64,000 bases of DNA from Candidatus Dojkabacteria bacterium (GCA_030583825.1 CP129477.1:510308-574307); one strand, 5' to 3'; shown: positions 5,045-63,712, numbered from the stretch's first letter. The notes: generated by a model not told the origin, from the sequence alone. Program-made: numbers and translations.

Positions 5045-5082
5045 GGCTTTTACGGAATTGGCGTGTGCTGATAAAATAGCGG

Positions 5083-7968
5083 ATGTCAGGAATTCACAAA
5101 GGTCTTTTACTTGCGATTGATGCAAACTCATTATTACACCGAGCATATCACGCGTACCCATTAACGATGGTTACTTCGGATGGAGTACCAGTAAACGCGG
5201 CATTCGGATTTACCTCGATGCTATTAGATACTTTGCTGAAGTATCGTCCAGAATATGTTTTTTGTGCGTTTGATACTCATAAGCCGACGTTTCGTCACAC
5301 AGACTATTTGGGGTACAAAATGAATCGTCCGAAAACCGATTCAGAGCTTGTTGACCAAATTCCTCTCGTTGATAATGTCTTGAATGCGTTGAATATTCCT
5401 ATTTTTCGCGTAGATGGCTACGAAGCAGATGACATTCTTGGGACAGTCGCTGCGAAAGCTGTTGCAGATGTTCATGGCCCCATTTCCAACGCTTTTATTT
5501 TAACTGGTGACCGGGATTTGTATCAGCTGGTTAATGAAAAAGTACAGGTCGTGATGCCAAAAGGATCGTTTAAAAATTTACAGGAATATGGAGAAACGCA
5601 GGTGATTGAATCAATGGGAGTTCCTCCGGTACGGATTACTGACTTGAAAGGACTTATGGGTGATGCATCGGATAATATTCCTGGAGTCAAAGGCATTGGC
5701 CCGAAAACTGCTGCAGATTTGATCACAACATTTGGTTCATTGGAAGAAATTTACCAAAATATTGAAGAGGTGGCTAAAAAGTCAAAAAGAATTGCTGAAA
5801 AACTTGCAGAAGAGCAGGAAGTCGCAGTGCTAAGTAAACAACTTGCAACGATTAAGTTGGATACTCCAGTCACATTTAAGTATGATGCCGCGTTGACGAG
5901 TGATTTTTCATTGCATAAAGCAACTGCGTTATTTACTCAGTATCAGTTTAAGTCATTGCTTCCGCGGCTGAAAAAGTTCGATGATATTGCACCAAAATTG
6001 GATGGTCAGGAACAAACAGAGACAATGGAGGATGTACAAAGTTTAACACTGAAAGAAGAAATGTCTCATTGGATTGGCCAATTGCCGGATGATTTAAGAG
6101 GTGGGGACACACTTGCCGCGCTTGATCGCTTAGACGCGGTCTTACTATCGAGTGAATCACATTCTTTTGAAAATATGTCCGGAAAAGGGCTTGGTGAGCG
6201 TGTAGAATTCCTTGGGAAAATATTGGAAGAACTACAGTCGGATGCATTTTCTCAATTTGTCATTGTGTATTACGGGCGAGCAGTGTACATAACGGATATT
6301 TCAGATGCGAGATTGTCATTAGCAGGAGGAGCAAAAATCATTTTTCATGGATTTTTTAGCTATTGGAACGAATGTGTGACTGGCCCAGAACAATCATCTT
6401 TGGACAAAAAACAACACGAAATCCTGAAAGCGCTGTTTGCTGCAGATGTTTTAGTGGATATTCCTTCTTTAACATATGCAATGGCCGCTGGACGTGGAGA
6501 TTATGATATTTCGCAAGCGGTATTACAGTATGGCATTTTACCTCAACATGTTTCCCAACAGCTTCCAATTATTGCATTGATGCAAGCAGCAAAAGCAACG
6601 GTCGGATTACCAGAATATGTGGGACTTACGCGTATTGTTGAGTTGTGGAAGCAGCGTCCTCAAAGAGGAGATATGACAATTCCTGAGTCGGTACATCTCT
6701 TTTTGGATAAACCTGCACAGTTTGGAGTTGCGCTTATGCACTTGCGCGGTATTGGAATAAATCCAGAACTCGTATTGGAATATGGGCAGTCGTTGGAAAA
6801 AGAAATTGCCACACTAGAAAAGGGCATCTTCGATGACATTGGATTCGAATTTAACATTCGTTCTCCAAAACAGCTGGGAGATATTTTATTCTCTCATTTG
6901 GGATTGCCGTCAAAGAAAAAAACAAAAACAGGCTTTTCTACAGACGATGAGGTCTTGCAAGAGCTTTTACCCGCCCACCCTGCAGTGGAGAAAGTACTCA
7001 AATACCGGCAGCTTTCCAAGCTTCTCAATACATACATTCGTCCTTTTCTCGATCTTGCCCAACGTCACAATGAGGCGACTTCTGGACAGCAATTAACATT
7101 TGGTGCCGGAAATGTCGAAAACAGCTCGGGAAATTTCTTTAGAATTCACTCTGAATTTGATCCAATGTCCACATCTTCGGGGCGCTTGTCGTCGAGCAAT
7201 CCTAACTTACAGAACCTACCGATTAAAACTCTGGAAGGAAAAATGATCCGCAAGTTCTTTGTTCCAGAAGCAGGAAATGTTCTCATTTCGATAGATTATT
7301 CGCAAATTGATCTGCGTGTAATGGCTCATATTTCCGGAGATCCAGGACTTTTGGAGGCATTTACCAAAGAACGAGATGTTCACAGAACAACCGCAGCAAA
7401 GATTTTTGGAGTTGACTACGCAGATGTAAATGACTCACAGCGACGTATTGCAAAAACCGTAAACTTCGGTCTTTTATATGGAATGTCGGCATTCGGATTG
7501 TCCAAGTCTATCGGTGTGTCAGTGAAAGAAGCGGATGCATTTATAAAAGCGTATTTCGAGTCATTTCCAAATGTTCAGAAATATATGGAAGAAACGATTG
7601 ATTTCGCCTCGCAGTATGGGTATGTTCTATCGTTATTGGGTCGCCGAAGATATATGTACGGAATTGATGCGAACAACCAGCAACGACGTCAGGCAGCACA
7701 GCGAGAGGCAATAAACATGCCGATCCAGGGTGGTTCAGATGATATTATGCGTCTGGCACTTGGACAGATATCGCTTATGGATGAAGTCCTCTCCGGCAAA
7801 GTTCGTTTGGTGTTACAGATTCATGACGAGCTTGTGTTTGAAGCTCCAGATGATGAGAAGTTCTTGAAAGAGTTTATTCCAAAACTGACGAATACAATGG
7901 AACATGTGCTTGAATTGGCAGTGCCGTTGAAGGTAGAGTATGCGGTAGGGAAAAACTTGGACATATAA
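5083..7968 (+). CDS. polA: DNA polymerase I
   Basis: N-terminal 5'-3' exonuclease/FEN domain (GDASDNIPGVKGIGPKTA helix-hairpin-helix). Pol A motifs in the C-terminal half: RRQAAQREAINMPIQGGSDDIM and QIHDELVFE. 961 aa. Confidence 0.9.
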   Translation: MSGIHKGLLLAIDANSLLHRAYHAYPLTMVTSDGVPVNAAFGFTSMLLDTLLKYRPEYVFCAFDTHKPTFRHTDYLGYKMNRPKTDSELVDQIPLVDNVLNALNIPIFRVDGYEADDILGTVAAKAVADVHGPISNAFILTGDRDLYQLVNEKVQVVMPKGSFKNLQEYGETQVIESMGVPPVRITDLKGLMGDASDNIPGVKGIGPKTAADLITTFGSLEEIYQNIEEVAKKSKRIAEKLAEEQEVAVLSKQLATIKLDTPVTFKYDAALTSDFSLHKATALFTQYQFKSLLPRLKKFDDIAPKLDGQEQTETMEDVQSLTLKEEMSHWIGQLPDDLRGGDTLAALDRLDAVLLSSESHSFENMSGKGLGERVEFLGKILEELQSDAFSQFVIVYYGRAVYITDISDARLSLAGGAKIIFHGFFSYWNECVTGPEQSSLDKKQHEILKALFAADVLVDIPSLTYAMAAGRGDYDISQAVLQYGILPQHVSQQLPIIALMQAAKATVGLPEYVGLTRIVELWKQRPQRGDMTIPESVHLFLDKPAQFGVALMHLRGIGINPELVLEYGQSLEKEIATLEKGIFDDIGFEFNIRSPKQLGDILFSHLGLPSKKKTKTGFSTDDEVLQELLPAHPAVEKVLKYRQLSKLLNTYIRPFLDLAQRHNEATSGQQLTFGAGNVENSSGNFFRIHSEFDPMSTSSGRLSSSNPNLQNLPIKTLEGKMIRKFFVPEAGNVLISIDYSQIDLRVMAHISGDPGLLEAFTKERDVHRTTAAKIFGVDYADVNDSQRRIAKTVNFGLLYGMSAFGLSKSIGVSVKEADAFIKAYFESFPNVQKYMEETIDFASQYGYVLSLLGRRRYMYGIDANNQQRRQAAQREAINMPIQGGSDDIMRLALGQISLMDEVLSGKVRLVLQIHDELVFEAPDDEKFLKEFIPKLTNTMEHVLELAVPLKVEYAVGKNLDI

Positions 7969-13129: not shown

Positions 13130-14053
13130 CTACTCAATTTCTGCTGCCAAGTTCATTTCTTCCAAAACTGCGACGAATCTATCCGGTGGGAAAAAATTAA
13201 ACTGTCCATCTTCATACGCGTAGGGGAGAGTTATCATTTGATCGTTAAACTGCCAGTAAATCTGCGATGAAATTGCTCCTGGCCCTTGCTGAAAAAGATT
13301 AAATGTTGTGGGAATAAATGTGTTAAGCATTTTAAGTATAGAAGCATCCTTCACTGGATATGCCAATACTCCCGTCGAAGTAGGGATAGAAAACAATGTG
13401 CCGTAGTCTCCCACAAGCTCTTTATATTGATGAATGCGATACGCATTCGTCGGCGAAAACGGTGTGTCGTCTTCAATCGAGATAATTGTTTCTCCGTTGG
13501 GGAGCGGAACTGTCACTTTGGCTGGGCGAGACTTTCTAAACGTATTGAGTAATGCAGCTTCGAAGATTTGCTCCTTACTCACATTCCATTGTTCAATCTC
13601 TTTTGGAGAAAGGGTTACGATTATTGTTGGTAGATCAAGTACCAATACTGAGATAATGCCGTCGAAGTGGCGCCAATATACCACATCATCAAGGCTTTCT
13701 GAGTCTGCGAAGTATTTAAGCGGGTAAAGTCTAATACCTAACTTATCTTGCGCATCACCCAAAGTTTGAATATTTGTTTTTAGCTCTTGAATTTCCTGCT
13801 GAGCCTTTAAAAATTGGTCAAAGTGGAGTTTTACAAGCTGCGACCATTGTGATTCTTTGGCAATAAGGCATTGTTCCCACAGGTTTTCAAGCGAAAAAAC
13901 GCCTGGTTCACCTTCAATATGAAAAGTTTTACCTTCTATAAAAAGAGGGAATTTTCCCTTTTCAACGAAATATCTTTCAACAATTCTCTGAAAAACACGA
14001 TATTTCTCTGCGAGGATTTCTGCCTCATCTTTTTTGCGAAAAAAGTCGAACAT
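13130..14053 (-). CDS. hypothetical cytoplasmic protein
   Basis: 307-aa ORF with protein-like composition and no TM. No recognised motif. Confidence 0.5.
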   Translation of the reverse strand: MFDFFRKKDEAEILAEKYRVFQRIVERYFVEKGKFPLFIEGKTFHIEGEPGVFSLENLWEQCLIAKESQWSQLVKLHFDQFLKAQQEIQELKTNIQTLGDAQDKLGIRLYPLKYFADSESLDDVVYWRHFDGIISVLVLDLPTIIVTLSPKEIEQWNVSKEQIFEAALLNTFRKSRPAKVTVPLPNGETIISIEDDTPFSPTNAYRIHQYKELVGDYGTLFSIPTSTGVLAYPVKDASILKMLNTFIPTTFNLFQQGPGAISSQIYWQFNDQMITLPYAYEDGQFNFFPPDRFVAVLEEMNLAAEIE

Positions 14054-51552: not shown

Positions 51553-52920
51553 GTGAAAAGATTACCATTACGACTTATTCTAGGAATTACTGCATGTATT
51601 TGCGGCTATTATGCTGCTGAGTCATTAGCTATTTCTAATAAGAATACCTTCGTTCTACTAGGGGCGTGTTTTTGCCTATTCCTACTGATCTTTAGCATCT
51701 GGAGAGAACAGCATAGCCCTGTGATATTCTTGCGGTTTTCGCGTAAAAATAGCAGACAAAGAATAAAGATAATAATGATTTGTGTAACTATTATTCTTGG
51801 TATATATGCGGGAATAGTAGTTAGATTAAGACTTCACTCAGGTTGTGAGTTCATTCCCGGTAATATGGTATTTGTTGCTTCAGTGTATACATCTGGCATC
51901 GAGGTCAAACCTATAGGTTGTAGTTCTAAATTACGGGCATTCGCATATTGTAACGAAGGAAAATGCCCACGTATTGGAGTTCTTGCTACTTTGCAGAAGG
52001 TGCAAGCAAGAGAAAACTCTTTGTCCGTTAGCGTGAGCAATCTTAAAGTACCAGAGTGGAATAGTGAGCCTTGGATGTTTGCAAGGTATGTGGGGAATTC
52101 TCTTAAAGAAGAGTATTATTCGCTAATTTTGGAGTCCGAGGGGCCAGATACGGCAAATATTATGGTGTCGCTTCTGTTTGGAGGTACAGCTCTTCCGGAA
52201 TGGTTTAAAAAAGGAATGGAGGCTTTAGGCTTACAGCATATTACTGCTATTTCGGGTGCTAATATTGCACTGCTTATGAGTTTTATGGAAGGAGTATTAC
52301 GTAAGTTACACAAAGTTCTGATTAATAGTATTATGATTATAGTTTCTCTTGCTCTATTAACTATTACAGGGCCACTTCCTCCTTTATTAAGAGCATTCTT
52401 TACCATTATTATAGTATCTATTTTTACCCTTTGGGGCCGAAAAGTAGAAGGTTTATCTTATGTGACACTTCCTGCATTATTGGGTATCTTTTTCTTTCCT
52501 GAGCTAAGTGAATCAAAGAGCTATTTTCTTGCAGTTGCAGCAATTTTTGGTGTAATGGTCATCGCACCTTCTATAGAAAGGAAGTTCGTAAAACATATCA
52601 AGAGAGTTTTTCCCAGAATAAGCAAAAAGTTTATTGATTTTTGTAGAGTAATTATTTTACAACTTGGAGTGGCCATAAGCATACAACCTTTACTATGGTT
52701 TTATTTTGGAAGAAATTCTCCCATTGGAATAGTTAGTTCAATCATACTTGATTCAACTTTCACGGTACTTCTTACAGTAGGGTACATTGCCTTTATAGCT
52801 TCTAGTACTTTTAGTGAAGTAACGAGGCTTTCGTTTCCCGCTGTGAAGCTTATCCTTACCGTCATCAAAATAATGTTTCACATTTTAGAAAATATAACCA
52901 TAAGTTATCAACATGTCTAG
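51553..52920 (+). CDS. ComEC/Rec2-family competence membrane protein (core competence domain only)
   Basis: Polytopic membrane protein with the ComEC signature region LLFGGTALPEWFKKGMEALGLQHITAISGANIALL. No metallo-beta-lactamase domain present. Confidence 0.65.
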   Translation: MKRLPLRLILGITACICGYYAAESLAISNKNTFVLLGACFCLFLLIFSIWREQHSPVIFLRFSRKNSRQRIKIIMICVTIILGIYAGIVVRLRLHSGCEFIPGNMVFVASVYTSGIEVKPIGCSSKLRAFAYCNEGKCPRIGVLATLQKVQARENSLSVSVSNLKVPEWNSEPWMFARYVGNSLKEEYYSLILESEGPDTANIMVSLLFGGTALPEWFKKGMEALGLQHITAISGANIALLMSFMEGVLRKLHKVLINSIMIIVSLALLTITGPLPPLLRAFFTIIIVSIFTLWGRKVEGLSYVTLPALLGIFFFPELSESKSYFLAVAAIFGVMVIAPSIERKFVKHIKRVFPRISKKFIDFCRVIILQLGVAISIQPLLWFYFGRNSPIGIVSSIILDSTFTVLLTVGYIAFIASSTFSEVTRLSFPAVKLILTVIKIMFHILENITISYQHV

Positions 52921-54655
52921 AGATATGTTTCACAAATTAATTAAAAATAAGCAAACGTGGAAAAAGTGTTTATATCTTTTAGGGGTAGTAGCTTTCTTAT
53001 GTTTCACACTTTCTCAAGATATAACAGTAAAAGCAGACTCATTTTTTCCTTCAGGAGATGCACGGTATTGTTTACTAGTTCCTACTGTAGGGTTTTACTT
53101 ACAAAGTACACCTATTCCGGAGTTTTTAGAGTATGATGGCGATAAAGTCACGGGATATTCATATAGTTGGGTAACTTCGCATGGAATTACAGATGTCGCT
53201 GATATTCGAGCTGGGCACTTACATAGATTCAGAGACATTGCCAGCTATGTTGCTGGGCCACCAGGAACTCAAATAGGTGTTGCCGCTTGGTTTTACAATG
53301 GAAGTGGACACTCAGTTGATATTTCTGAGTCTCGACTATATCTTTCCTCTCCCGAAAGTGGAGATCTCACAAGAAATACAACAGTTCTTCCTCAAAGTGG
53401 AGTAACTCAAACACTATATTTTGGGAATCAGTTTTCTCGGACAGGGGCATATACAACATTTCCTGTGCCAAGAATTCCTTCGTACTCAGGAAGTCATCCT
53501 CCAGGAATGAAAATTGGTACTCTCACTATAAAACAGCCTGTAGTGATAGGCTCTGTCGTTGCAGCCTGTTACCCAACAAACGATGGACAAATAATTATGG
53601 AGAAAAATATTATGGTTAGAAATGATTCCATGTACTCATTACAAAATGTCCAAGTAGGAAATCAGTCTATTGAACTTGCTCCGCGTCAAATATCTGTAGT
53701 GACAATTACTGAAACTCAACCTCAAAATGCATCAAATACGTATGTGGGGAGTACGGTAAAGGTGTCTGACCAAAATGAACACCTCGAATGTGCAGCAACG
53801 GCTGCCGCAGATGGCGATGCTCTTATAGCTTCGGCGAGACCATTTTTTGTAAACAGAAATGATTCAGCAGACCTGAGTTGGTTTCGATTTCAACCTGCAC
53901 CTGCAGCAGAAGGCGGAGGTGTTACTCTCTGTGTGAGGCAGATTGGTTATACACAGGAGACTATTGCGCCAAGCTGCTCATTTGAGCTCAAACAGGAGAT
54001 ATCCGTAGAGGAGACTAACTTTTGTGAGCAGGGTGGTAAGGGGGCTCGCATATCTATAAAGATCCATAATACGGGAGGTTTCAGTGATAAATCATTCATT
54101 TTTCTGCGAATTAGAAAAGAGCATAGCCATAAAATAGCCAAAGTAGTGGGCTACTCAGAACGGGAGGAAGATAATTCTTGGATAGTTTATAAAGCAGAAA
54201 TTCCGTCAATAACTCACGGTGAAAGTAGGTCGCACATATTTACTATTGAATGGAGCGAACTAGCAGAAGACAATACTCCCATTTCAGTTCTTTATAAAGA
54301 GCAGGAAATAGAAAAAATAATTACAGTTGAAAAATGCGTACTGTCTCAGACTCCGGGGAATATAACAAGCATTAGCCACGCACCTATACCAATAACTGTT
54401 AGCCAGGAAGAATCACTCTGGAATAAAACTAAAAATGAAAACTTTTTTGTGTTATCAAAATTGGCGAATGCAGGGATTTCGTTTGAGCTGGAGAATTCCT
54501 ACTTATTTGGAGCAGTCATTGCAATAATTTCTTGCCTTATTTTTAGAATTGTTTCAAAAGGATATGTGAGAGGGCGATTTAAAAAGACAGAAGAGAGTAT
54601 TTCTTTTTCGCCTGCAGATAATGGACAACAAAGTATTGTCTCGATTGAAAATTGA
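52913..54655 (+). CDS. hypothetical secreted/membrane-anchored protein (N-terminal signal, C-terminal TM)
   Basis: 580-aa ORF overlapping the ComEC-like stop by 8 nt (operonic). N-terminal hydrophobic segment and a C-terminal TM (FGAVIAIISCLIFRIV). No recognised domain. Confidence 0.5.
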   Translation: MSRDMFHKLIKNKQTWKKCLYLLGVVAFLCFTLSQDITVKADSFFPSGDARYCLLVPTVGFYLQSTPIPEFLEYDGDKVTGYSYSWVTSHGITDVADIRAGHLHRFRDIASYVAGPPGTQIGVAAWFYNGSGHSVDISESRLYLSSPESGDLTRNTTVLPQSGVTQTLYFGNQFSRTGAYTTFPVPRIPSYSGSHPPGMKIGTLTIKQPVVIGSVVAACYPTNDGQIIMEKNIMVRNDSMYSLQNVQVGNQSIELAPRQISVVTITETQPQNASNTYVGSTVKVSDQNEHLECAATAAADGDALIASARPFFVNRNDSADLSWFRFQPAPAAEGGGVTLCVRQIGYTQETIAPSCSFELKQEISVEETNFCEQGGKGARISIKIHNTGGFSDKSFIFLRIRKEHSHKIAKVVGYSEREEDNSWIVYKAEIPSITHGESRSHIFTIEWSELAEDNTPISVLYKEQEIEKIITVEKCVLSQTPGNITSISHAPIPITVSQEESLWNKTKNENFFVLSKLANAGISFELENSYLFGAVIAIISCLIFRIVSKGYVRGRFKKTEESISFSPADNGQQSIVSIEN

Positions 54656-56223
54656 TGCTCGAGTGTGGTTGGAATAAACAGAGAATCAAATGCGCGGGAC
54701 AAAATAAATTTATTTTTCTTTAATCCGATGACTGACTGATAAAACATATCTTTTACAATTTGGTTGCTGAGGCTGTCGAGAATTTTCTTAGGAATTCGAG
54801 CAATGTGAAACCTATGAATCTTTTTTACAGCAAGAATTGCAGGGTGTGTGTTGCCTAACTTTTCCGGTATTTGGTTTAGAGTTGAAGCAAGAGAGAGAGC
54901 GTCGTTAATGAAAAATCTACTTTCGGTAGAAATTGGAACTGAGAGTATAGGAAATCCAGAGCAATAGGCATTAAGATATTGTGAAACAACTATTGCGGCG
55001 TAAGTTGCGTAAAAAAGCTGAGAGTCTTTCGATAAATGGTGAATAGTAGGCATTTCAACCACTTTTTGTGGCAGATTAAACGTTGGAAGGCTTGCCTTTG
55101 GTGATTCAATAACACGGATATCTTTGCCAAAATATTTTTTAAATACTTTTGCCATTGCATTCGATACGTCCCAAAAGCTCTTTTCTGTTTTTAAAGCAGA
55201 GTCACCTATTTGTGTAACAGCAATTCCTTCACCATTTCTTCCATTGCTGTGTGAATTGTAGTAGGCAAGATTGTATTTTTCATGTTTCACACTGCCGATA
55301 GATTCAAGCAGTTGTAACTTCTTTTCGAGAGAGTGTGCGATATGCTCCAAATACTCTTTCCAGTGAAGAGGAAGCTCCTGAGAATGTGTTTCATATACTT
55401 TGCGAAGTATGCTTTTATTCAGAGAGATCGCGGAAGCAATTTTCTTACTATCATATGAAAAGCGAGGAATGTAGTTGCCGTGTTTTTCTGTCCATTTCTC
55501 AAGTTCGCTTTCAAGGTTTACCGGCTGTTCCAGTTTCTCAATTGAAAGTACTGACTCATCTTCAGTAAATTTTTTAAGCTCACGGTACAGTGGCAATAAC
55601 TTTTCATTGTGAATATTCGTGTAAGAAGTTTCTAAATTGGGGTTAAGCTTTTCAAAAAAGAGAGCATCCTGTGTTTGCTGACCTTTCTTCACAAGAAAAT
55701 GCTTTTGCCTACCGATGAATCGAAATCCAGTTCGAAAGTTCAATTTGATAGTAGGGGTATTTTCTTCGTAGGTGCGTCCGTAAATCTTTAAAAATCCAAA
55801 TGATGAAAATAAAAAGTCGAAGAAAGCATCGTAACAGGCAGTAGAGTATCCTTTCCCTCGAAATTCAGACTTATTCAAAATAGCAACAGAAAGATAAGCA
55901 CTCATATTGCTCCAGTCAATAAGCTTTATTTTTACATAGCCGATGTAGGTCTTCTTGCGGTTTTCTGTCAACGTAAGTATGTAGGTAATTTCCTTAATCT
56001 TTTCGCCATACATGCTCTCAATTGCTTTTGTGAATGCTTCTGGCTGTACAATGCGTGGCGTACGAAATAAAGTTTTTTGGATATCTGAGTCGTTGAGAAT
56101 AATGAGCAATCCTTCCGCATGCGTTTTCGAGAGAGGTTCTAGCGTTAAGGCTTTAACCTTCGTTTTTAGTTTTGGAAAGACGGGCATATTTGTTCTCGAT
56201 ATAGGAAATAATCTCTCCGGCAA
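54499..56223 (-). CDS. GNAT acetyltransferase-like N-terminal domain fused to ~370-aa uncharacterised C-terminal domain (last gene of ATP-grasp operon)
   Basis: N-terminal ~190 aa are RimL/RimJ-like GNAT (YIGYVKIKLIDWSNMSAYLSVAILNKSEFRGKGYSTACYDAFFDFLFS). The C-terminal domain is unrecognised. The start could be the internal ATG at 56187. The 3' end overlaps convergent gene 52913..54655 by 157 nt. Confidence 0.55.
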   Translation of the reverse strand: MPERLFPISRTNMPVFPKLKTKVKALTLEPLSKTHAEGLLIILNDSDIQKTLFRTPRIVQPEAFTKAIESMYGEKIKEITYILTLTENRKKTYIGYVKIKLIDWSNMSAYLSVAILNKSEFRGKGYSTACYDAFFDFLFSSFGFLKIYGRTYEENTPTIKLNFRTGFRFIGRQKHFLVKKGQQTQDALFFEKLNPNLETSYTNIHNEKLLPLYRELKKFTEDESVLSIEKLEQPVNLESELEKWTEKHGNYIPRFSYDSKKIASAISLNKSILRKVYETHSQELPLHWKEYLEHIAHSLEKKLQLLESIGSVKHEKYNLAYYNSHSNGRNGEGIAVTQIGDSALKTEKSFWDVSNAMAKVFKKYFGKDIRVIESPKASLPTFNLPQKVVEMPTIHHLSKDSQLFYATYAAIVVSQYLNAYCSGFPILSVPISTESRFFINDALSLASTLNQIPEKLGNTHPAILAVKKIHRFHIARIPKKILDSLSNQIVKDMFYQSVIGLKKNKFILSRAFDSLFIPTTLEHQFSIETILCCPLSAGEKEILSSVFLNRPLTYPFETILKIRQEIIAMTAPNK

Positions 56224-57187
56224 CGTTTACTCCAGTTGCTGCTTCGAACCCCTTAAACTGTGGAGCACGGTTTGCTTCAATAATGACGGGGCCTTTTGAA
56301 GGCATCATAATGTCAACGCCGATAATTTCTGACTTCTGCAATTTCACGACATCAACGGCCATTTTCTTTATTTCCTCTGAAATCTCGACTGGATATGCAT
56401 CTGCACCTTGAGCGACATTTCCTTTCCACTGGCCAGTTTGAGGTTCTCGTCGCATTGCTCCAAGAACTTTATCGCCGACAACAAATACGCGGATATCACC
56501 TCTGTAGTCAATAACCTCTTGAAACATACACTCTTTGACTTTATGACCTTCGTATCGGAAGAATTCTTCAATTTCTTGTAGTGACGAAAACTTGAATACA
56601 CCTTTTCCTTTTGAACTTTCCGTTACCTTTACAATAATTGGGTACGAAAGGTGTGACAACATCTGCCTCATCATCGGAAGAGACACGACTGCGAACGATT
56701 TTGGATAGGGAAATCCAGTGCTAGAGGCTTTGTAGAAAGTTCCCAGCTTTGTCTTGTAGTACATCTCTGTGCCAATTTTTTCATCAACGACAATTTTGTC
56801 ATGCTTGAGCATGTAATTTGCAATAATCGTCGCCCACTCGAGAGTTTTGGCAATTTCACGGAAGATAATAACGTCAAAATAGCGTAAATCATACATTCCA
56901 GATACGACAGTTTCTTTCTTGCCAAGAAGAGAAGAAGTCACCTTTTTAGGAGATAATGATTCATCAGGAATAATTTTAATAGTTTGCACACCTTCAAAGT
57001 TTGCAGGATCGCTCATCTGTTCGTCTTTTGTCGGTGGGGTAAAGTACACACCAAATTGCGAGAAAAAGTTCGTTATAACGATATTTTTCTTTGAGAGATA
57101 GACAATCTCGTGGCCATTTTTTAACCCTTCAACAACGATTCTATCTGCTTCGTAATATGGCTTTAATCCAATAACTGCGATTTTCAT
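56153..57187 (-). CDS. RimK-type ATP-grasp ligase (alpha-L-glutamate ligase family)
   Basis: RimK-like N-terminus (MKIAVIGLKP..GHEIVYL). ATP-grasp core: IIVKVTESSKGKGVFKF, DIRVFVVGDKVLGAMRRE..GQWKGNVAQGA, IIGVDIMMPSKGPVIIEANRAPQFKGFEAATGVNVAGEII. Confidence 0.75.
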   Translation of the reverse strand: MKIAVIGLKPYYEADRIVVEGLKNGHEIVYLSKKNIVITNFFSQFGVYFTPPTKDEQMSDPANFEGVQTIKIIPDESLSPKKVTSSLLGKKETVVSGMYDLRYFDVIIFREIAKTLEWATIIANYMLKHDKIVVDEKIGTEMYYKTKLGTFYKASSTGFPYPKSFAVVSLPMMRQMLSHLSYPIIVKVTESSKGKGVFKFSSLQEIEEFFRYEGHKVKECMFQEVIDYRGDIRVFVVGDKVLGAMRREPQTGQWKGNVAQGADAYPVEISEEIKKMAVDVVKLQKSEIIGVDIMMPSKGPVIIEANRAPQFKGFEAATGVNVAGEIISYIENKYARLSKTKNEG

Positions 57188-57208
57188 GTATAAAGTATAC
57201 CTTAAATC

Positions 57209-58123
57209 TTAGCTAATATGTTCTGCGTACAGCTTGTTGATGTATTCCACAAAAAGTTTTGGAATATCAATGCCATGAGCTGTCATAAAGCCTTCAAATC
57301 CTGGAGTTCTGTTAACTTCAAGAAGGTATGGCTTGTTATCTTTCGTGTAAACAATATCAACGCCGCCAAATTGTGCTTCAGTTGCAACGCATGCTCGTGC
57401 AGCAAGGTCTCTCATTTCATCGGTAAGCTCAACAGGCTTAACACTGCCTCCAAGCGAAAAATTTGCCCTGAATTCTCCTTTCTTAGGAATTCTTTGCATT
57501 GCTCCTACTACTTGCTCTGCAACGACTAAAATGCGGTAATCTGCTTTCAAATCAAGCATCTGTTGAATATAGTAGCGTCCAACTGCCTTATCTTCGTTCA
57601 AATCTGCAAGTTTATTCTCGAGGTCTAAACGGTCATTCATTTTAAAAATGCTTGATCCTTTGCCTGCGGCTTTATGCTTTAATAAAAGCGGGTATCCAAT
57701 TTCTTTCTCGATAGTTGGGAGCATTTTCATGTATAAGGTGAATGTCGGAGCGTAAAATGTCTTTGGAAATGGTAATGCTGCTTGTGCGAGTTTTTGCCCA
57801 TCAACAATTTTATTCATAGTGTGGCGAATAACCGACAAATTGTTGTCAATGACCATCTTACCTTTGTTTCGCATATACGTAATGATGTTGATAGAGTATT
57901 TTGCGTAGAGAAAGACTTCTCGAACGAGCATAACATCGTATTGATCGAGGCTTCCTTTTGAGATATGAATAAAGTGGTCTCCATCTTGATCGAACACTGC
58001 ATGAATATCTTCAACTGCGAGTAAATCAACGTGCCATCCATCCTTTTTAAATGCACGAACTAATGATTGCGGCTCAAACTTTTCTTCAAAGGCCCGCTGA
58101 ATTAAAATTGCTAATTTTTTCAT
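57209..58123 (-). CDS. RimK-type ATP-grasp ligase (second paralog)
   Basis: ATP-grasp core: PLLLKHKAAGKGSSIF, YRILVVAEQVVGAMQRIPKKGEFRANFSLGG, FGGVDIVYTKDNKPYLLEVNRTPGFEGFMTAHGIDI. Confidence 0.75.
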   Translation of the reverse strand: MKKLAILIQRAFEEKFEPQSLVRAFKKDGWHVDLLAVEDIHAVFDQDGDHFIHISKGSLDQYDVMLVREVFLYAKYSINIITYMRNKGKMVIDNNLSVIRHTMNKIVDGQKLAQAALPFPKTFYAPTFTLYMKMLPTIEKEIGYPLLLKHKAAGKGSSIFKMNDRLDLENKLADLNEDKAVGRYYIQQMLDLKADYRILVVAEQVVGAMQRIPKKGEFRANFSLGGSVKPVELTDEMRDLAARACVATEAQFGGVDIVYTKDNKPYLLEVNRTPGFEGFMTAHGIDIPKLFVEYINKLYAEHIS

Positions 58124-58161
58124 TTTTGTTGACTAGATTAAGTTATCTCTTAGTATTTCCG

Positions 58162-59676
58162 TTAACGCATCGTAAACGTTTTTGACGGGTCAATAAGGAA
58201 TTCTTTTAAGTCTTTTCGCCCAAGAATAACGGGGTAAATCATTGCTGAACGATTGCTGACCGTAAGAATATATGTTTTTTTTATTCCGCCGAGTGCGATA
58301 TTTGCACGGATAATCGGTCGGATTGTGATTCCATTTCCAGAGCGAACAACAATAAAAGAGCTGATATAATCAAATTCCGAAAGTCTTGCTTTGTATGGTT
58401 CCATTGCTTCGTGTGCTGCGGCACTTGTTTTATACGTTTTGTCAAAAAGTTCCTGTACTTTTTCGAGTTCTTTGTATCCAAGCTGAATTGCCAAACGATA
58501 GTCAATCGAAGATTTTCGTGCGCCTGTGTCAATCTTTGCTTTAATAACTTCTGTCGGGATTTTTACCTGTTTCTTTCTTTTAGTACTCGATTTGAGTGCT
58601 GCTAATGCTTCTATTACCTCATCAACAGGGGTAATTGTGACAGTCTCTACTAAGCCGATAATCTCTTTACCGGTAATACTTTCGACTTGCTCTTCAATTT
58701 CACCACCAAAAAGATTCTTAGCAATCATTATTGCCTTTGCTACTGATTTCTTCTTTAGCCGACGTACCTGATTGATTCTCTCTAGGAGACCTTCTTGATT
58801 TGCTAACTGAATAGCTAAACCAGGTCTTGCGTTAAGTTCCAGGATTAATGGGCCTTTCTCTGCATCAATAGCGATATCAACGCCCAAAAAACCGAGCTTT
58901 GAATGCTGTTGGCACTTTGCTGTGAGTTCAAGAATTTTATCCCAGAAGGGGATTTTAATTCCCTGGAGGGGGATTTTAGGACTGTCTAATGTTTCTTCAA
59001 TCTCATTATACTGATCTCCGATCATATCAAAGCCTTTTCGGTGAATTGCAGTTGTTGTAACTCCACTTGCAATGTCAATTCCAACACCGATTCCTCCGGC
59101 ATGAAGGTTCGCTGTACCTTTAGACTCTTTTGTAGGAAGTCGTAACTCGGCCATAATTGGGATAGAATTGTATGCAATAACGCGAATATCCGGAATACCA
59201 CGGTATGAAAATGGCTTTAGTGTTTTATGGTTTACAATACGCTCTTCAAAAAAGGCAACATCAGCTTTTCCATCAATTGAGAACTTACCGTCAATAATAT
59301 CTGCTAAATGCTGTTTTATATCGTTTACAGACATACTCTCCATGTTAGGCATAATCCATTCTAATTTGCCCTTTTTCTGACCGTAAAACACTATAATACC
59401 TGCGCCGTGAGTTCCACGGTTAGGCTTAATGACAAAGCTTTTTGGCAAAGAGCTCCAGTTGATATACTCGATTTGCTCCTTTGTTCGGATAATTTTGAAT
59501 AACTCAGGGGTTTTAATTCTATATTTTGCAAGAAGCTTTTTACTTAAAAGTTTGTCATCTGCGTACTTTTTATACTTGCGTGGATTGAGCTTACGCATAA
59601 TAAGCCTGTTGCGGTGATTCAATCCAAGGATCTTGGTATTGGAATCGAAAATGTGGTGAAATGGCAGCCCGAACAT
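58162..59676 (-). CDS. ATP-grasp ligase (alpha-L-glutamate-ligase-related, TIGR02291-like) fused to C-terminal retropepsin-like 'Zn_protease' (RimB-like) domain
   Basis: N-terminus ILGLNHRNRLIMRKLNPRKYKKYADDKLLSKKL...FVIKPNRGTHGAGIIVF and ATP-grasp core (LILELNARPGLAIQLAN). The C-terminal ~150 aa carry KIDTGARKSSID...ILGRKDL, typical of the retropepsin-like domain found with RimK systems. Confidence 0.65.
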   Translation of the reverse strand: MFGLPFHHIFDSNTKILGLNHRNRLIMRKLNPRKYKKYADDKLLSKKLLAKYRIKTPELFKIIRTKEQIEYINWSSLPKSFVIKPNRGTHGAGIIVFYGQKKGKLEWIMPNMESMSVNDIKQHLADIIDGKFSIDGKADVAFFEERIVNHKTLKPFSYRGIPDIRVIAYNSIPIMAELRLPTKESKGTANLHAGGIGVGIDIASGVTTTAIHRKGFDMIGDQYNEIEETLDSPKIPLQGIKIPFWDKILELTAKCQQHSKLGFLGVDIAIDAEKGPLILELNARPGLAIQLANQEGLLERINQVRRLKKKSVAKAIMIAKNLFGGEIEEQVESITGKEIIGLVETVTITPVDEVIEALAALKSSTKRKKQVKIPTEVIKAKIDTGARKSSIDYRLAIQLGYKELEKVQELFDKTYKTSAAAHEAMEPYKARLSEFDYISSFIVVRSGNGITIRPIIRANIALGGIKKTYILTVSNRSAMIYPVILGRKDLKEFLIDPSKTFTMR

Positions 59677-59678
59677 AT

Positions 59679-60320
59679 TTAGTTTTTGAGAATTGACTTA
59701 AAGCGGAGAATCTCGGTAATTCTAATATTGCTCCATGTTGCGATAAGAATATTTGCCAAAAGCACTGCGATAAGAATTTCCTGATGGTTAACAAGTACGT
59801 TATTCCACCATTCCCAAACTAAAATGCTTCCACAAACAAGCCCTAATACGAAAGTTGTAACAATTCTACGCAGAAATTCCTGAGAATCCTTTTTAAATTG
59901 AAGCGTTGCAAGATCATCAATGGTTGTTCCAATAAGGAATGCTCCAATCATAATCATTGTTTTGCTAAAAAGAGGGATACCGGTAACCCAAGAAAGCACA
60001 GGAACAAGTGCGAATAGAAGTACGGTTCCGCCGAGATAAATGAATGCAATCCGTCCGTAGTAATTGATATTACGTTTTCTTATAGCGTAACGGGTAAGAA
60101 TAGCACCACCAATAACTGCGATAACAAACGATGCCCAGACGAATAATGTTACCCAAAATGAGCGAGTTGTTTCGTATATAAGATAGAAGGCGAGTGCGAG
60201 AGTAACTGCTGTATAGTTTCGCCATGTTTTGAATCCTATAATGTATCGTGTTGCTGCAATAATTGTAACGATAACTGGAAGATTCAGAATAATGGGAGCT
60301 ATGTCTTGGATGATAACCAT
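59679..60320 (-). CDS. 7-TM integral membrane protein (7TM module resembling the TM part of 7TM-transglutaminase proteins associated with ATP-grasp peptide ligases)
   Basis: 213 aa with seven predicted TM helices. No transglutaminase domain. Stop is 2 nt before the ATG of the ATP-grasp/protease gene (tight operon). Confidence 0.5.
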   Translation of the reverse strand: MVIIQDIAPIILNLPVIVTIIAATRYIIGFKTWRNYTAVTLALAFYLIYETTRSFWVTLFVWASFVIAVIGGAILTRYAIRKRNINYYGRIAFIYLGGTVLLFALVPVLSWVTGIPLFSKTMIMIGAFLIGTTIDDLATLQFKKDSQEFLRRIVTTFVLGLVCGSILVWEWWNNVLVNHQEILIAVLLANILIATWSNIRITEILRFKSILKN

Positions 60321-60343: not shown

Positions 60344-60355
60344 GTTATTATACCA
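60344..60355 (-). promoter_or_regulatory. extended -10 (TGGTATAAT, minus strand) candidate promoter of the ATP-grasp operon
   Basis: Reverse complement of 60344..60355 reads TGGTATAATAAC, about 25 nt upstream of the 7TM gene ATG at 60320. Confidence 0.3.
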
Positions 60356-60493
60356 TTTTTAGTCAAATGCAACAATATTTAAGGGGGATTATTTAAAAGG
60401 AAAGGAGGAATATGTATGACCTATATATAATTCTATAGGTCTTTTGGGGGTATTGTTCTCTGGTGCATGATTTTTTGATATAATGCATTCGAT

Positions 60494-60566
60494 GCGCTCG
60501 TAGCTCAATGGATAGAGCAACTGCCTTCTAAGCAGTAGGTTGTGAGTTCGAGTCTCGCCGAGTGCA
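60494..60566 (+). tRNA. tRNA-Arg (anticodon TCT), 73 nt, with G3:U70 and A73
   Basis: Acceptor GCGCTCG/CGAGTGC (third pair G:U), D-arm GCTC-AATGGATA-GAGC, anticodon stem ACTGC/GCAGT with loop CTTCTAA, T-arm GTGAG-TTCGAGT-CTCGC. Preceded by TATAAT at 60477..60482. Confidence 0.8.
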
Positions 60567-60613
60567 AAGGTGAATTTTTCCTACGGAGTAGGAAGGGTTC
60601 ACCTTTTCTATTT
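60567..60613 (+). terminator. rho-independent terminator after tRNA-Arg (stem AAGGTGAA/TTCACCTT, then TTCTATTTT)
   Basis: An 8-bp stem encloses an inner mini-hairpin (TCCTAC/GTAGGA), followed by a T-rich tract. A second small hairpin with a T-run (GCAAGTGACCTTGCGTTTTT) lies at about 60634..60653. Confidence 0.5.
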
Positions 60614-60957: not shown

Positions 60958-62061
60958 CTAATCAATAACTGGATAGCCACGTTTTGCGGACAAAAGTCTC
61001 TGATATATATAAGGGCCCGCGTAGGTGAAAATATTTTTCTTAAAATCAATTGGTGGTAGATACTCAACAAGCTCTGAGCTAAATCCTCTCTTAAATAGGT
61101 CGAGGCTTTCCCATGGATGTTTCATCTTCCTTTCAAGAATGTTTTTGGAAATAGCTCCTCCCCAGAGGTCGAGAATTTCGATATCTCCGGACTGTTGCAG
61201 GTCGGTAATGATGTGGTACAGGTTTACGTGTGAAGCATTCATTCTTTTTCCTCGCTGTGAAGTTGCCGCATGATAGTAATATGCCCGATTTCGGAATAAA
61301 ATGACTTGCGCAATTGTCAGCGGTTCTCCCTCAAAGTGGGTGACATATTGTCGTAACATGCCAGCTTTCTGGTATTCTTCAAGCTCTTGAGTGATATAGT
61401 CGTTGGGGAGAGGAGTAAAGCCTTTTGTACGTTCCATCTCGTTATAAAAAGAGAGAAATGTACTAAAGCTGACTGGTTCGGCCTCTACGGTAGTTTTTAT
61501 ACCTGCTTTAATGCCCTGTGTTACGCAGTGTCTGGAAGTCTTTCTGATTTTCATCAAATCAAACTCTTTGATATTGATAATATGGGTTACGCATGCGTCA
61601 ATTTCCTGCGTTGGGGCGCGGTTATACCCGAGCTGATAAATTCCTTTTAACAGTTCTGGGTCTTTTTGTATTCGTGGAGTCAATCGTGCAAATGCGGCAC
61701 CATGTTTTTGTAGTTGTTCTTTTATGAATGGGCCGAGAAGTTCAAAGGTTCGAAGTACTTTTTCTGGTTTTTGAGTCTTTATAGGCAAAGGAGTATGCTG
61801 AAAATAGATCATTTTTCCGCTTTGTGCCGGAATCAGCTGGTAGTGCAATAAGCCGCTCGGTTTGCCTTTTTCTTCTATCGCGAAAAAGAATAACTCTCTG
61901 CCGCGTCGGCGTAAGAACGAGAATCTTGCTGCCGAATTATAAAAAGTAAAATTTTCTGTCTGCTGTAACAGGTCATGATATTGGGCTTCCGTGATCTCTG
62001 TTATCTGCAGTGGTCTGTTTGCCATGCTTGTGAATTTTATCATATCAGAGGTTTTCTTCAC
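60958..62061 (-). CDS. FemAB/FemX-family (aminoacyl-tRNA-dependent) peptidyltransferase-like protein
   Basis: Similarity by eye to FemX-type motifs: ILDLWGGAIS (compare FemX LYDLGGI) and RAYYYHAATS (compare IWYMYAGS). The ~370-aa two-lobed GNAT-like length fits. Not confirmed by search. Confidence 0.55.
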   Translation of the reverse strand: MKKTSDMIKFTSMANRPLQITEITEAQYHDLLQQTENFTFYNSAARFSFLRRRGRELFFFAIEEKGKPSGLLHYQLIPAQSGKMIYFQHTPLPIKTQKPEKVLRTFELLGPFIKEQLQKHGAAFARLTPRIQKDPELLKGIYQLGYNRAPTQEIDACVTHIINIKEFDLMKIRKTSRHCVTQGIKAGIKTTVEAEPVSFSTFLSFYNEMERTKGFTPLPNDYITQELEEYQKAGMLRQYVTHFEGEPLTIAQVILFRNRAYYYHAATSQRGKRMNASHVNLYHIITDLQQSGDIEILDLWGGAISKNILERKMKHPWESLDLFKRGFSSELVEYLPPIDFKKNIFTYAGPYIYQRLLSAKRGYPVID

Positions 62062-62101: not shown

Positions 62102-63712
62102 ATGATAAGTTTCGAGGCGCGTGGAACGGTAGTTGAAAAAGAACTTTCCCCAGAGCAAGATGGTGAGAAGAGAGTTTTCACTGTTGTTGGTATAGAATCG
62201 CATAATCCAGATAGAGAGTTGCCGCAGAATGTGAAAGATTTAGGACAACAAAAGAACCTTTTTCGTGTTGAGCAGGAAGATAAAGATCAGATTTTAGGAT
62301 TTGTGGAAAAAAGAATAGAAGCGATGAATGCGCATGACCCATCTTTGATTGAGAGATTTCCTGGATTTCTTGATGAAGCTTCTGAGCCGAAACCAACACT
62401 CGCAGAGATATTGGCTATGTCGCAGCAAATAATGCTGAGATATACTGGACAACATGTAGAAGGTATCGGTAAACCTAATAATTTGAGAGATCTTTTTGGT
62501 GAAAGTGCAAATTCCAGAGAAAGGCCTCAAATAAAATGTAACTTGTTTAGCAGTGCCTATATTCATGTTTTCAATACTCTTTGTGAACAGTATCATCCCG
62601 AAATCCTTGATTATTATGTACTTATGCCTGTAAATGCTGAAGCTGCGTTAGATGTTGCGCATGAAAGAGGGGTCAGGAGTCATACTGCGGGGTTTAGACG
62701 AATGCTTCCACACGGCTATCTCAATTTAGTAAGTATGCATGGGAGAAATGTTGATATAACGCCTATTGACCCTTATTGGGTAGCTCGTGGAGAAGGAGAC
62801 TATATGACTCCAGAAAATATTAAAAGTTTTGATAGAACAAGGTTTCGCCGTATTGATGCAATGCTTGCAATGGTTAATACTCCAGACCCTGTCGTACTAC
62901 ATGAAATGATATTAGAAGATGCTGAGGGAGAACAACTGCCTGAAAATAATTTATCTCATGCTTTATACTTGCAATCGGTTGTAGAGTTAAGAATTAATAA
63001 GCCTTATTACGATACATTACATCATGCCGAAGTTACGAATGATTCGTGGGATTTGAATATTAAAATATACGATGAGGCTATTTCCGAAATCGATCGAAAA
63101 GACGGTGGAGGCTCGAGCTCTTTGCGAAGAGCTGCATTAGTTGAAGCAAAGACTGCGGCTGAAAATGATATAGCTAAGGCAAATGTAGCGCACAATGAAT
63201 GGAGCAGGTTAAGACAGGTATATTTAAATCACAGAGATGCCTTGGCATTACGGGCACTTGAGCAAATGCAGGAAATAGAACCCTCAGATATGGAGTTATT
63301 TCTCCTCTTTAATGTGGAACATTCAATTTCGGATTATGGGGCGATTGTTGATCCAAGGCTCTATGATCAAGCAAAAAATATTATGAAAGAAGTGATAGAT
63401 TCCGGCAGAAAGCTGAATCTATCTTCTGAGGTTGGATATAGAATGGCAATGAGGGCAACCCGAGATGAATTCGTTATCCCGCAATATAAAGATCCTGATT
63501 TAGTCGTGGCTTCATATGAATTGCGTTTAATGGAGTGCATTTTCTATTCCCAGTCGGGAGTGAATAGGTGGATGGAACAACTTCCCCAGGCGGCATCACT
63601 TCCTCTCTCGCAACAAGCGACATATCGAAAATTTTTAGATAACCTTATTGTGGAATTAGCAGAGAGAAATCTTGATGTACAGAAGATTGAATATCTTCGA
63701 AATAAACTATAA
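62102..63712 (+). CDS. hypothetical protein
   Basis: 536-aa ORF, acidic and soluble, no TM. No recognised motif. Confidence 0.5.
   Translation: MISFEARGTVVEKELSPEQDGEKRVFTVVGIESHNPDRELPQNVKDLGQQKNLFRVEQEDKDQILGFVEKRIEAMNAHDPSLIERFPGFLDEASEPKPTLAEILAMSQQIMLRYTGQHVEGIGKPNNLRDLFGESANSRERPQIKCNLFSSAYIHVFNTLCEQYHPEILDYYVLMPVNAEAALDVAHERGVRSHTAGFRRMLPHGYLNLVSMHGRNVDITPIDPYWVARGEGDYMTPENIKSFDRTRFRRIDAMLAMVNTPDPVVLHEMILEDAEGEQLPENNLSHALYLQSVVELRINKPYYDTLHHAEVTNDSWDLNIKIYDEAISEIDRKDGGGSSSLRRAALVEAKTAAENDIAKANVAHNEWSRLRQVYLNHRDALALRALEQMQEIEPSDMELFLLFNVEHSISDYGAIVDPRLYDQAKNIMKEVIDSGRKLNLSSEVGYRMAMRATRDEFVIPQYKDPDLVVASYELRLMECIFYSQSGVNRWMEQLPQAASLPLSQQATYRKFLDNLIVELAERNLDVQKIEYLRNKL

Follow-up and report, generated by a model that had tools for sequence, protein, structure and literature searches.

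A 64,000-nucleotide (nt) stretch of the genome of a Candidatus Dojkabacteria bacterium (GCA_030583825.1, CP129477.1:510308-574307, here called the window) carries five minus-strand genes that are arranged as an operon and that we refer to as g1 to g5 in 5' to 3' order. A first-pass annotation of the window had listed five open reading frames (ORFs) at this position, and our ORF calls returned the same five:

g1, 59679-60320, minus strand: RloB-like seven-transmembrane (7TM) membrane protein, 213 amino acids (aa)
g2, 58162-59676, minus strand: fusion of an ATP-grasp ligase with a retropepsin, 504 aa
g3, 57209-58123, minus strand: RimK-family alpha-L-amino-acid (glutamate-type) ligase, TIGR00768, 304 aa
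g4, 56153-57187, minus strand: RimK-family ligase, N-terminal (pre-ATP-grasp) region enlarged, 344 aa
g5, 54499-56223, minus strand, as the maximal ORF starting at TTG: fusion of a GNAT domain with a MATCAP-type domain

The operon is the Patescibacterial counterpart, in a compact and fused form, of two known systems, RloABC of Pseudomonas and RimK/RimB. Kinship with the triad of 7TM-transglutaminase, ATP-grasp ligase and retropepsin had been recognised before, and it is borne out by matches above cutoff to PF14402, PF14397 and PF05618. The five genes are real, as more than 80 loci retrieved in a distribution scan with one genome per species hold full-length homologs of the operon; locus annotation by hidden Markov models (HMMs) covered 86 loci. 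The intergenic spacing amounts to 2 nt between g1 and g2, 38 nt between g2 and g3 and 21 nt between g3 and g4, and g4 and g5 overlap. A scan of the window for terminator-like sites on the minus strand gave none within the operon, which, together with the gene spacing, makes co-transcription of g1 to g5 likely.

Domains of the five proteins

The g2 protein consists of two domains and a connecting segment:

Residues 15-311, 58744-59634, minus strand: ATP-grasp ligase domain, RloC-type (ATPgrasp_ST / TIGR02291-like)
Residues 322-332, 58681-58713, minus strand: linker LFGGEIEEQVE between ligase and protease, acidic and near-invariant
Residues 370-502, 58171-58569, minus strand: retropepsin domain, RimB/RloA-type, with catalytic D383-T-G

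Ligase and protease had been called as a fusion, and both families were indeed found on this one protein, with 222 bits for PF14397 ATPgrasp_ST (cutoff 31.4) and 43.7 bits for PF05618 (cutoff 27); the retropepsin also matches the PDB entries 9g58, 9g59 and 2pma. The ATP-grasp motifs are intact, with K84 in FVIKPN and E280/N282 in LELNARPG, and K84, E144/E145/R146, D267, E280 and N282 are unchanged among 20 diverse homologs. In the linker F323, G324 and G325 are invariant and E326 and E328 are conserved to at least 90% in the homolog alignment, giving a near-invariant family consensus LFGGE(I/V)EE..E, and this acidic segment might dock on basic loops of the 7TM protein g1. Self-cleavage at the linker was also considered and found unsupported, because it offers only four acidic residues in seven and RloA requires at least 8 consecutive Glu (PMC12239564).

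RloA numbering was mapped onto g2 by means of nine named RloA residues that coincide with 9g58 at an offset of 20 (PMC12239564). In this numbering K381, R431, R453 and R476 of g2 correspond to the RloA poly-Glu contacts K46, R92, R114 and R137, so that all four are kept. Reading of the g2 sequence revealed no evident signal peptide or transmembrane (TM) segment, and as the protease is the C-terminal domain of a 504-aa fusion without a signal peptide, it is placed in the cytoplasm. Across the fused family the catalytic Asp is present in 84 of 87 retropepsin domains, the Thr in 85 and the Gly in 82; counted by locus, D-T-G is kept in 76 of 86 and D-T/S-G in 78 of 86. The equivalent of R114 is found in 83 of the 87 domains and is the sole near-invariant contact residue. 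Three loci, L005, L069 and L075, carry Asn in place of the Asp (NTG), and a few others read DTS, DTT or DTN. In the 86-locus survey the presence of an active MATCAP followed no pattern with respect to such dead NTG retropepsins, in either direction.

The g1 protein matches PF14402 7TM_transglut with 33.4 bits (cutoff 25) over the 7TM part only (profile positions 53-247). Its alignment to the RloB model is confined to positions 311-508 of 508, indicating that the N-terminal inactive transglutaminase domain is missing, just as the first-pass annotation had read it. A profile of g1 homologs found 954 relatives among 1.84 billion representatives; the best 150 of these comprise about 90 standalone proteins (212-260 aa) and about 40 of RloB length (496-545 aa), and the latter match only over their last ~200 residues (E about 1e-24). 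Lys and Arg residues accumulate in loops 1, 3 and 5 and at the C-terminus of g1 (3, 5, 4 and 4, against 0, 1, 1 and 0 elsewhere), from which an N-out/C-in topology is predicted that fits RloB with its periplasmic N-terminal domain. Invariant residues are R25, Y26, G29, K31, T32, Y36, Y95, K144, R151, R200, R206 and F207, and the conserved basic ones among them (R25, K31, K144, R151, R200 and R206) map to the predicted cytoplasmic face or loops. The AlphaFold2 model is confident, with a predicted local distance difference test score of 86.4 and a predicted TM-score of 0.83, and comparison with solved structures revealed no resemblance to a known transporter or enzyme.

The two additional RimK ligases of the earlier reading are confirmed by TIGR00768, which gives 160.8 bits for g3 and 159.1 bits for g4 at a cutoff of 143.4. 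Among PDB entries g3 matches ArgX 3vpb best (5e-20), followed by RimK 7qys and 4iwx, and g4 matches Pseudomonas RimK 7qys (5e-27) with only residues 1-32 and 168-344 aligned. Both retain the ExN motif on reading of the sequence, and the ATP-grasp catalytic residues are intact in all three ligases, g2, g3 and g4. The equivalog models are not reached by either protein: PRK10446, the S6--L-glutamate ligase, gives 75.9 and 82.1 bits (cutoff 331), and the cofactor ligases MptN and CofF remain far under their cutoffs (132 vs 350 and 77 vs 300). The ArgX match of g3 and the scores for the LysX equivalog TIGR02144 (122.6 and 130.1 bits) would speak for an amino-group carrier-protein module of the LysW/LysX/ArgX type. 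The LysX scores lie below the cutoff of 275.6, however, the neighbourhood contains neither a LysW-like small acidic-tailed ORF nor LysY/Z/J/K genes, and the 7TM protein, the retropepsin and the MATCAP domain would be left unexplained; we regard such a module as extremely unlikely.

For g5 the following features were assigned:

55720-56148, minus strand: GNAT domain, RimJ/RimL-like, GNAT fold
55843-55863, minus strand: conserved acetyl-CoA motif FRGKGYS
54499-55575, minus strand: degenerate C-terminal MATCAP/DUF1704 (QEGLA) metallocarboxypeptidase domain
54970-55008, minus strand: position of the zinc motif, reading ATYAAIVVSQYLN
54886-54909, minus strand: position of EEG(L)A, reading INDALSLA

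The earlier extent of g5 holds for the maximal ORF. Its start is likely to be ATG 56187 (562 aa) and not TTG 56223: homologs align from the Met of ATG 56187 onwards, and the deposited protein P0121 is identical to the shorter version. The GNAT fusion stood as well (PF13302, 48.4 bits), and the C-terminal domain, left as unrecognised in the first-pass annotation, can be assigned from sequence comparison as a diverged MATCAP/DUF1704 domain. On its own the window copy gives only a weak match to TIGR02421 'QEGLA' (E 1.3e-4) and 15 bits for PF08014 MATCAP, under the cutoff of 27. The full-length homologs P0124, P0127 and P0128 (33-38% identical), which have the same architecture of GNAT and C-terminal domain, exceed this cutoff with 35.5, 46.6 and 48.3 bits. 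To avoid circularity an independent HMM was built from 40 standalone operon MATCAPs only; it detects P0125, the g5 of the syntenic operon in locus L001, over nearly the whole profile (3.7e-21) and window g5 in the N-terminal signature only (5.4e-6). P0125 and window g5 are related with E 3e-85, and hhalign, comparing the three closest proteins with the standalone MATCAPs, shows colinearity across 231 columns (E 2.3e-4). The MATCAP homology of the window copy thus rests on a chain from g5 via P0125 and the fused homologs to MATCAP.

In window g5 the zinc site has changed from HExxH to TYAAI and from EEG to NDA, and the window protein and its two nearest relatives carry ATYAAIVVSQYLN and INDALS or KNEALY instead of the MATCAP motifs. 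More distant fused homologs retain the zinc site, and the other operon-linked MATCAPs in the 86 loci show HE(V/I)GTH..N or HESxH plus EEGLA, except for a diverged copy in locus L073 and fragments without the motif region; the g5 of L001 reads HESTH. In eukaryotic MATCAP/TMCP enzymes mutation of either Glu abolishes activity (PMC10499314), so that the loss of HExxxH and EEG predicts a catalytically dead domain in window g5. The GNAT proteins of L006 and L008-L011 (333-423 aa) have C-terminal extensions with MATCAP remnants only, completing a series from active-fused via dead-fused to truncated MATCAP in which the GNAT is conserved at each stage. Such graded decay beside a conserved GNAT looks like a natural case of an enzyme turning into a binding module.

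Distribution and variants of the operon

Relatives of the fusion protein were found in at least 589 species genomes; in the best 80 of these the match spans the whole fused length, and nearly all are Patescibacteria. The invariant core consists of a 7TM gene (210-257 aa) followed by a ligase-retropepsin gene (mostly ~470-525 aa); in each of the 83 loci with upstream sequence the 7TM gene immediately precedes the fusion gene. Around this core the gene content varies. In the commonest operons (type A, ~45 loci) the core is accompanied by three further ATP-grasp genes (~326, 565 and 317 aa) plus, in convergent orientation, a standalone MATCAP gene (~387 aa); as a rule rplJ-rplL precede these operons on the same strand at a distance of 106-170 nt. 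The type B operons of the window's clade have two RimK genes and a GNAT gene, with MATCAP present or not, and core-only operons occur in several genomes, e.g. adjoining murB in L003. A second, standalone retropepsin gene follows the fusion in L063 (7131-7667). The rearranged gene set described in the first-pass annotation was thus confirmed; it is no oddity of a single genome, and the window arrangement is one variant of a Patescibacteria-wide operon family.

MATCAP is linked to the core in four arrangements: as a convergent standalone gene (~45 loci), as a same-strand, diverged gene of 455 aa (L073, 11485-12852), as a GNAT fusion (L001 and the window) and within a 956-aa triple fusion of ATP-grasp, retropepsin and MATCAP (L053, 3891-6761; PF08014 44.4 bits). 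These repeated linkages and fusions indicate that MATCAP belongs to the ligase-retropepsin pathway.

Since accessory gene content differs between genomes, and since combinations of ATP-grasp, GNAT and peptidase proteins are known from conflict systems (PMC4431377), we also considered a role in phage defence or other conflicts, with an invader or host protein as the target of the ligases. Against this speak the vertical conservation of the core and its location beside housekeeping genes (rplJL, murB, femX-like, comEC) and not in variable islands. A defence system was rejected as none of the five proteins, g1 to g5, matches any PADLOC model, and the broader conflict reading is highly unlikely.

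Two loci carrying an operon of 7TM, fusion and RimK genes are labelled as Micavibrio sp. (L081, DYDB01000005.1) and Pseudobdellovibrionaceae (L046, CAZMCZ010000007.1). Their G+C contents of 39% and 43% resemble those of the loci from the candidate phyla radiation (CPR), which suggests that the sequences were mis-binned or transferred to predatory bacteria. The rplJ-rplL site of type A operons (e.g. 6124-7180 in L005) is the place where rpoBC usually follows, and the L7/L12 protein of L005 carries at its N-terminus a long extension rich in Lys and Glu, while its hinge reads DSEEEEEK.

Related systems and proposed function

The triad had been regarded as a predicted association; the kinship stands, and the triad is more than a prediction, as the rloABC operon of Pseudomonas, encoding 7TM-transglutaminase, ATP-grasp and retropepsin proteins, has been characterised genetically, with its product still unknown (PMC12239564). 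As that product is unknown, the window operon does not turn out to be part of an already characterised pathway. Absence of the RloA proteases is suppressed when rloB or rloC is lost as well, implying that ligase, 7TM protein and protease share one product; RloA cleaves runs of at least 8 Glu, Rlo mutants have osmotic phenotypes, and 96% of RloB matches are proteobacterial (all PMC12239564). Like rloABC, the window has an operon-linked triad of PF14397 ATP-grasp (with TIGR02291 below its curated cutoff), PF14402 7TM protein and PF05618 retropepsin with DTG, and the poly-Glu-contact residues are found in the retropepsins of both. In contrast to Pseudomonas, where ligase and protease are separate and the protease is secreted to the periplasm, the window has them in one polypeptide with a cytoplasmic protease, its 7TM protein is without the inactive transglutaminase domain of ~300 aa, the operon also has RimK ligases, a GNAT and a MATCAP domain, and the host is a CPR bacterium. 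With every NCBIfam Rlo model the scores stay far under the cutoff.

RimK, which extends S6, also synthesises poly-alpha-Glu; RimB stimulates this synthesis and is able to cleave poly-Glu, and an active RimB-RimK hybrid, RimBK, exists in Desulfotalea, Flavobacteriales and Rhodobacterales (PMC11957791). The pairing of a cytoplasmic RimK-type ligase with a retropepsin is common to this system and the window, and RimBK is a precedent for a ligase-protease fusion. RimBK, however, combines an N-terminal protease with a true RimK, whereas in the window the ligase comes first and is of the RloC type (ATPgrasp_ST); moreover, the window is without RimA, has an obligate 7TM partner and remains below the S6-ligase and RimB equivalog models.

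The MATCAP/TMCP carboxypeptidases take off C-terminal Tyr or Glu and deglutamylate (PMC10499314). As in the tubulin code, where residues are attached at C-termini or as poly-Glu by ATP-grasp enzymes and removed by a PF08014 enzyme with HExxxH and EEG (PMC10499314), ligases and an intact MATCAP occur together in the sister operons of the window. The window system differs in being bacterial and membrane-linked, in having RimK/RloC-type instead of TTL/TTLL ligases, and in a MATCAP that is joined to a GNAT and retains neither motif. Proteobacterial QEGLA proteins (TIGR02421) resemble the CPR operons in that a MATCAP-family peptidase adjoins an ATP-grasp ligase, and differ in being longer (~620-660 aa) and without 7TM, retropepsin or GNAT. 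On Aminobacter pAA02 (L087, 4067-7811), for example, genes for a formylglutamate-amidohydrolase-like protein, a QEGLA/MATCAP protein of 622 aa and an ATP-grasp 'glutathione synthetase' are contiguous on one strand.

Based on these comparisons we propose, with a probability of about 0.45, that g1 to g5 form a membrane-associated machine by which an acidic (Glu-rich) alpha-peptide is synthesised, trimmed to length and N-acetylated. Docked on the basic loops that g1 exposes to the cytoplasm, the g2 ligase would polymerise an alpha-linked chain on the cytoplasmic side of the membrane; this chain would be acidic and probably rich in Glu. A dimer of the fused retropepsin would cut over-long chains, thereby limiting their length, and it may also stimulate ligase activity in the manner of RimB towards RimK. 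The chain would be extended or diversified by g3 and g4, and the GNAT of g5 would acetylate its free alpha-amino end as a cap; capping of the product has been suggested as the role of GNATs associated with ATP-grasp ligases (PMC4431377). The dead MATCAP of g5 may act as a recognition module for the acidic C-terminus, replacing the active trimming MATCAP of the sister operons, and g1 would export or anchor the product. This architecture agrees with a cell type that has no periplasm: the protease would have been moved to the cytoplasm, as part of the fusion, and the extracytoplasmic transglutaminase-like domain dropped. By analogy with Rlo the operon may serve envelope or osmotic homeostasis.

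Several points weigh against this proposal. Although g2 matches TIGR02291 with 251.6 bits (E 9e-75), it remains under the curated cutoff of 314.2; it reaches 31-43 bits with the NCBIfam models of RloA1-3 (cutoffs 210-280) and 22.9 bits with the RimB equivalog NF052261 (cutoff 200). The equivalent of K46 is mostly Phe or Tyr across the fused family, and with only the R114-equivalent widely kept, poly-Glu specificity may not be general. Export by g1 is purely what we infer, as its model resembles no known transporter. The structure-search lists of g5 were filled by GNAT matches and leave the MATCAP fold unconfirmed, and co-transcription of the five genes is read from their spacing.

The main competing explanation is a system for tailing protein C-termini, a bacterial parallel to RimK/S6 or to the cycle of tubulin tyrosination and glutamylation. 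Here the ligases would extend the C-terminus of a ribosomal or membrane protein, possibly g1 itself, the retropepsin and MATCAP would remove the tail, and the GNAT would acetylate the same target. In agreement with this, g3 and g4 are members of the RimK family, MATCAP enzymes work on protein C-termini (PMC10499314), and the GNAT is nearest to RimJ/RimL, the N-acetyltransferases of ribosomal proteins. The position downstream of rplJ-rplL in ~45 loci also suggests a ribosomal target. The window's clade does not show this synteny, however, for which common ancestry may be the only reason, and such a target leaves the obligate 7TM partner unexplained. Moreover, g3 and g4 are far below the cutoff of the S6-ligase equivalog. 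A conserved small acidic-tailed ORF as substrate was looked for near the operons, in the window and the related loci, with none found; rpsF is absent from the window and the retrieved loci, and the C-termini of L7/L12 beside type A operons are ordinary. Altogether we consider protein tailing possible, if on the unlikely side. More doubtful is a self-contained C-terminal 'tail code' of Patescibacteria at a dedicated 7TM platform, with several ATP-grasp writers, two kinds of eraser (the retropepsin as endopeptidase and MATCAP as carboxypeptidase) and, in the lineage of the window, a dead MATCAP as reader guiding the GNAT. If true, this code would target a membrane or ribosomal protein and be a prokaryotic, possibly ancestral, relative of the tubulin tyrosination/glutamylation toolkit.

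Alternatively, the operon might encode a small-molecule pathway. Its product would be either a di- or oligopeptide osmolyte, acidic and N-acetylated, or a cofactor carrying a glutamyl tail (MptN/CofF type). Comparable osmolytes are N-acetylglutaminylglutamine amide (NAGGN), made by Ngg, and N-acetylaspartylglutamate (NAAG), made by RIMKLA/B. Known N-acetyl-dipeptide synthases have an architecture of GNAT plus ATP-grasp, which counts for this pathway, and g3 and g4 also match MptN, CofF and LysX models. The cofactor-ligase equivalogs remain far below cutoff, though, synthesis of tetrahydromethanopterin (H4MPT) or coenzyme F420 is unlikely in a reduced CPR genome, and three ligases with two types of peptidase are more than a dipeptide requires. 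The osmotic phenotypes of Rlo mutants would be in line with an osmolyte, but RloA-type retropepsins, needing at least 8 residues, suit polymers and not dipeptides (PMC12239564). A small-molecule product is accordingly improbable.

The component families, the triad and a ligase-retropepsin fusion in the opposite order are already known. To judge by the literature surveyed, novelty lies in a CPR-wide fusion of RloC and RloA that is accompanied by a transglutaminase-less RloB, in the modular accessory sets around it, in the recurrent linkage of MATCAP, the triple fusion included, and in the window's protein of GNAT and decayed MATCAP. CPR genomes of ~1 Mb have little biosynthesis, and hundreds of species still keep the operon (5.8 kb, 0.5% of the genome here), so that the product is probably important for the envelope or for epibiotic life. 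The minimal pair of 7TM and ligase-protease offers a simpler route to what Rlo-type systems make, with two genes, a cytoplasmic protease and no periplasm, and the linkage and fusion of MATCAP with ATP-grasp provide a bacterial context for an enzyme family functionally known only from tubulin.

Promoter region and neighbouring genes

Upstream of g1 a promoter-like element was identified by eye:

60347-60375, minus strand: TTGTTG (60375-60370), 17-nt spacer, TATAAT (60352-60347)

The spacer holds TGg (60355-60353), with one base separating the TG from the -10 hexamer that follows it, and the element ends 27 nt before the ATG of g1. A consensus scan did not report it because its -35 agrees at only 3 of 6 positions. 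The space for a g1 promoter is limited to only ~170 nt by an opposite-strand gene for tRNA-Arg(TCT) (60493-60567, plus strand), which lies between the operon and a FemX-like gene and bounds the 5' end of the operon. Directly after this tRNA gene a 19-bp hairpin with a T-run is found (60566-60606).

A 536-aa ORF at 62102-63712 (plus strand) has no match in Pfam or NCBIfam. The FemX/FemAB-like aminoacyl-transferase gene upstream of the operon (60958-62061, minus strand) matches PF13480 and, weakly, NF047883; a homolog is also located near the L001 operon (4585-5655), reflecting either a cell-wall context or mere synteny. On the other side a convergent 580-aa ORF (52913-54655, plus strand), which has a signal-like N-terminus, a C-terminal TM anchor and no Pfam match, shares 157 nt with the 3' end of g5 (54499-54655), and the syntenic locus L001 has a comparable convergent overlap of 118 nt (13241-13358).

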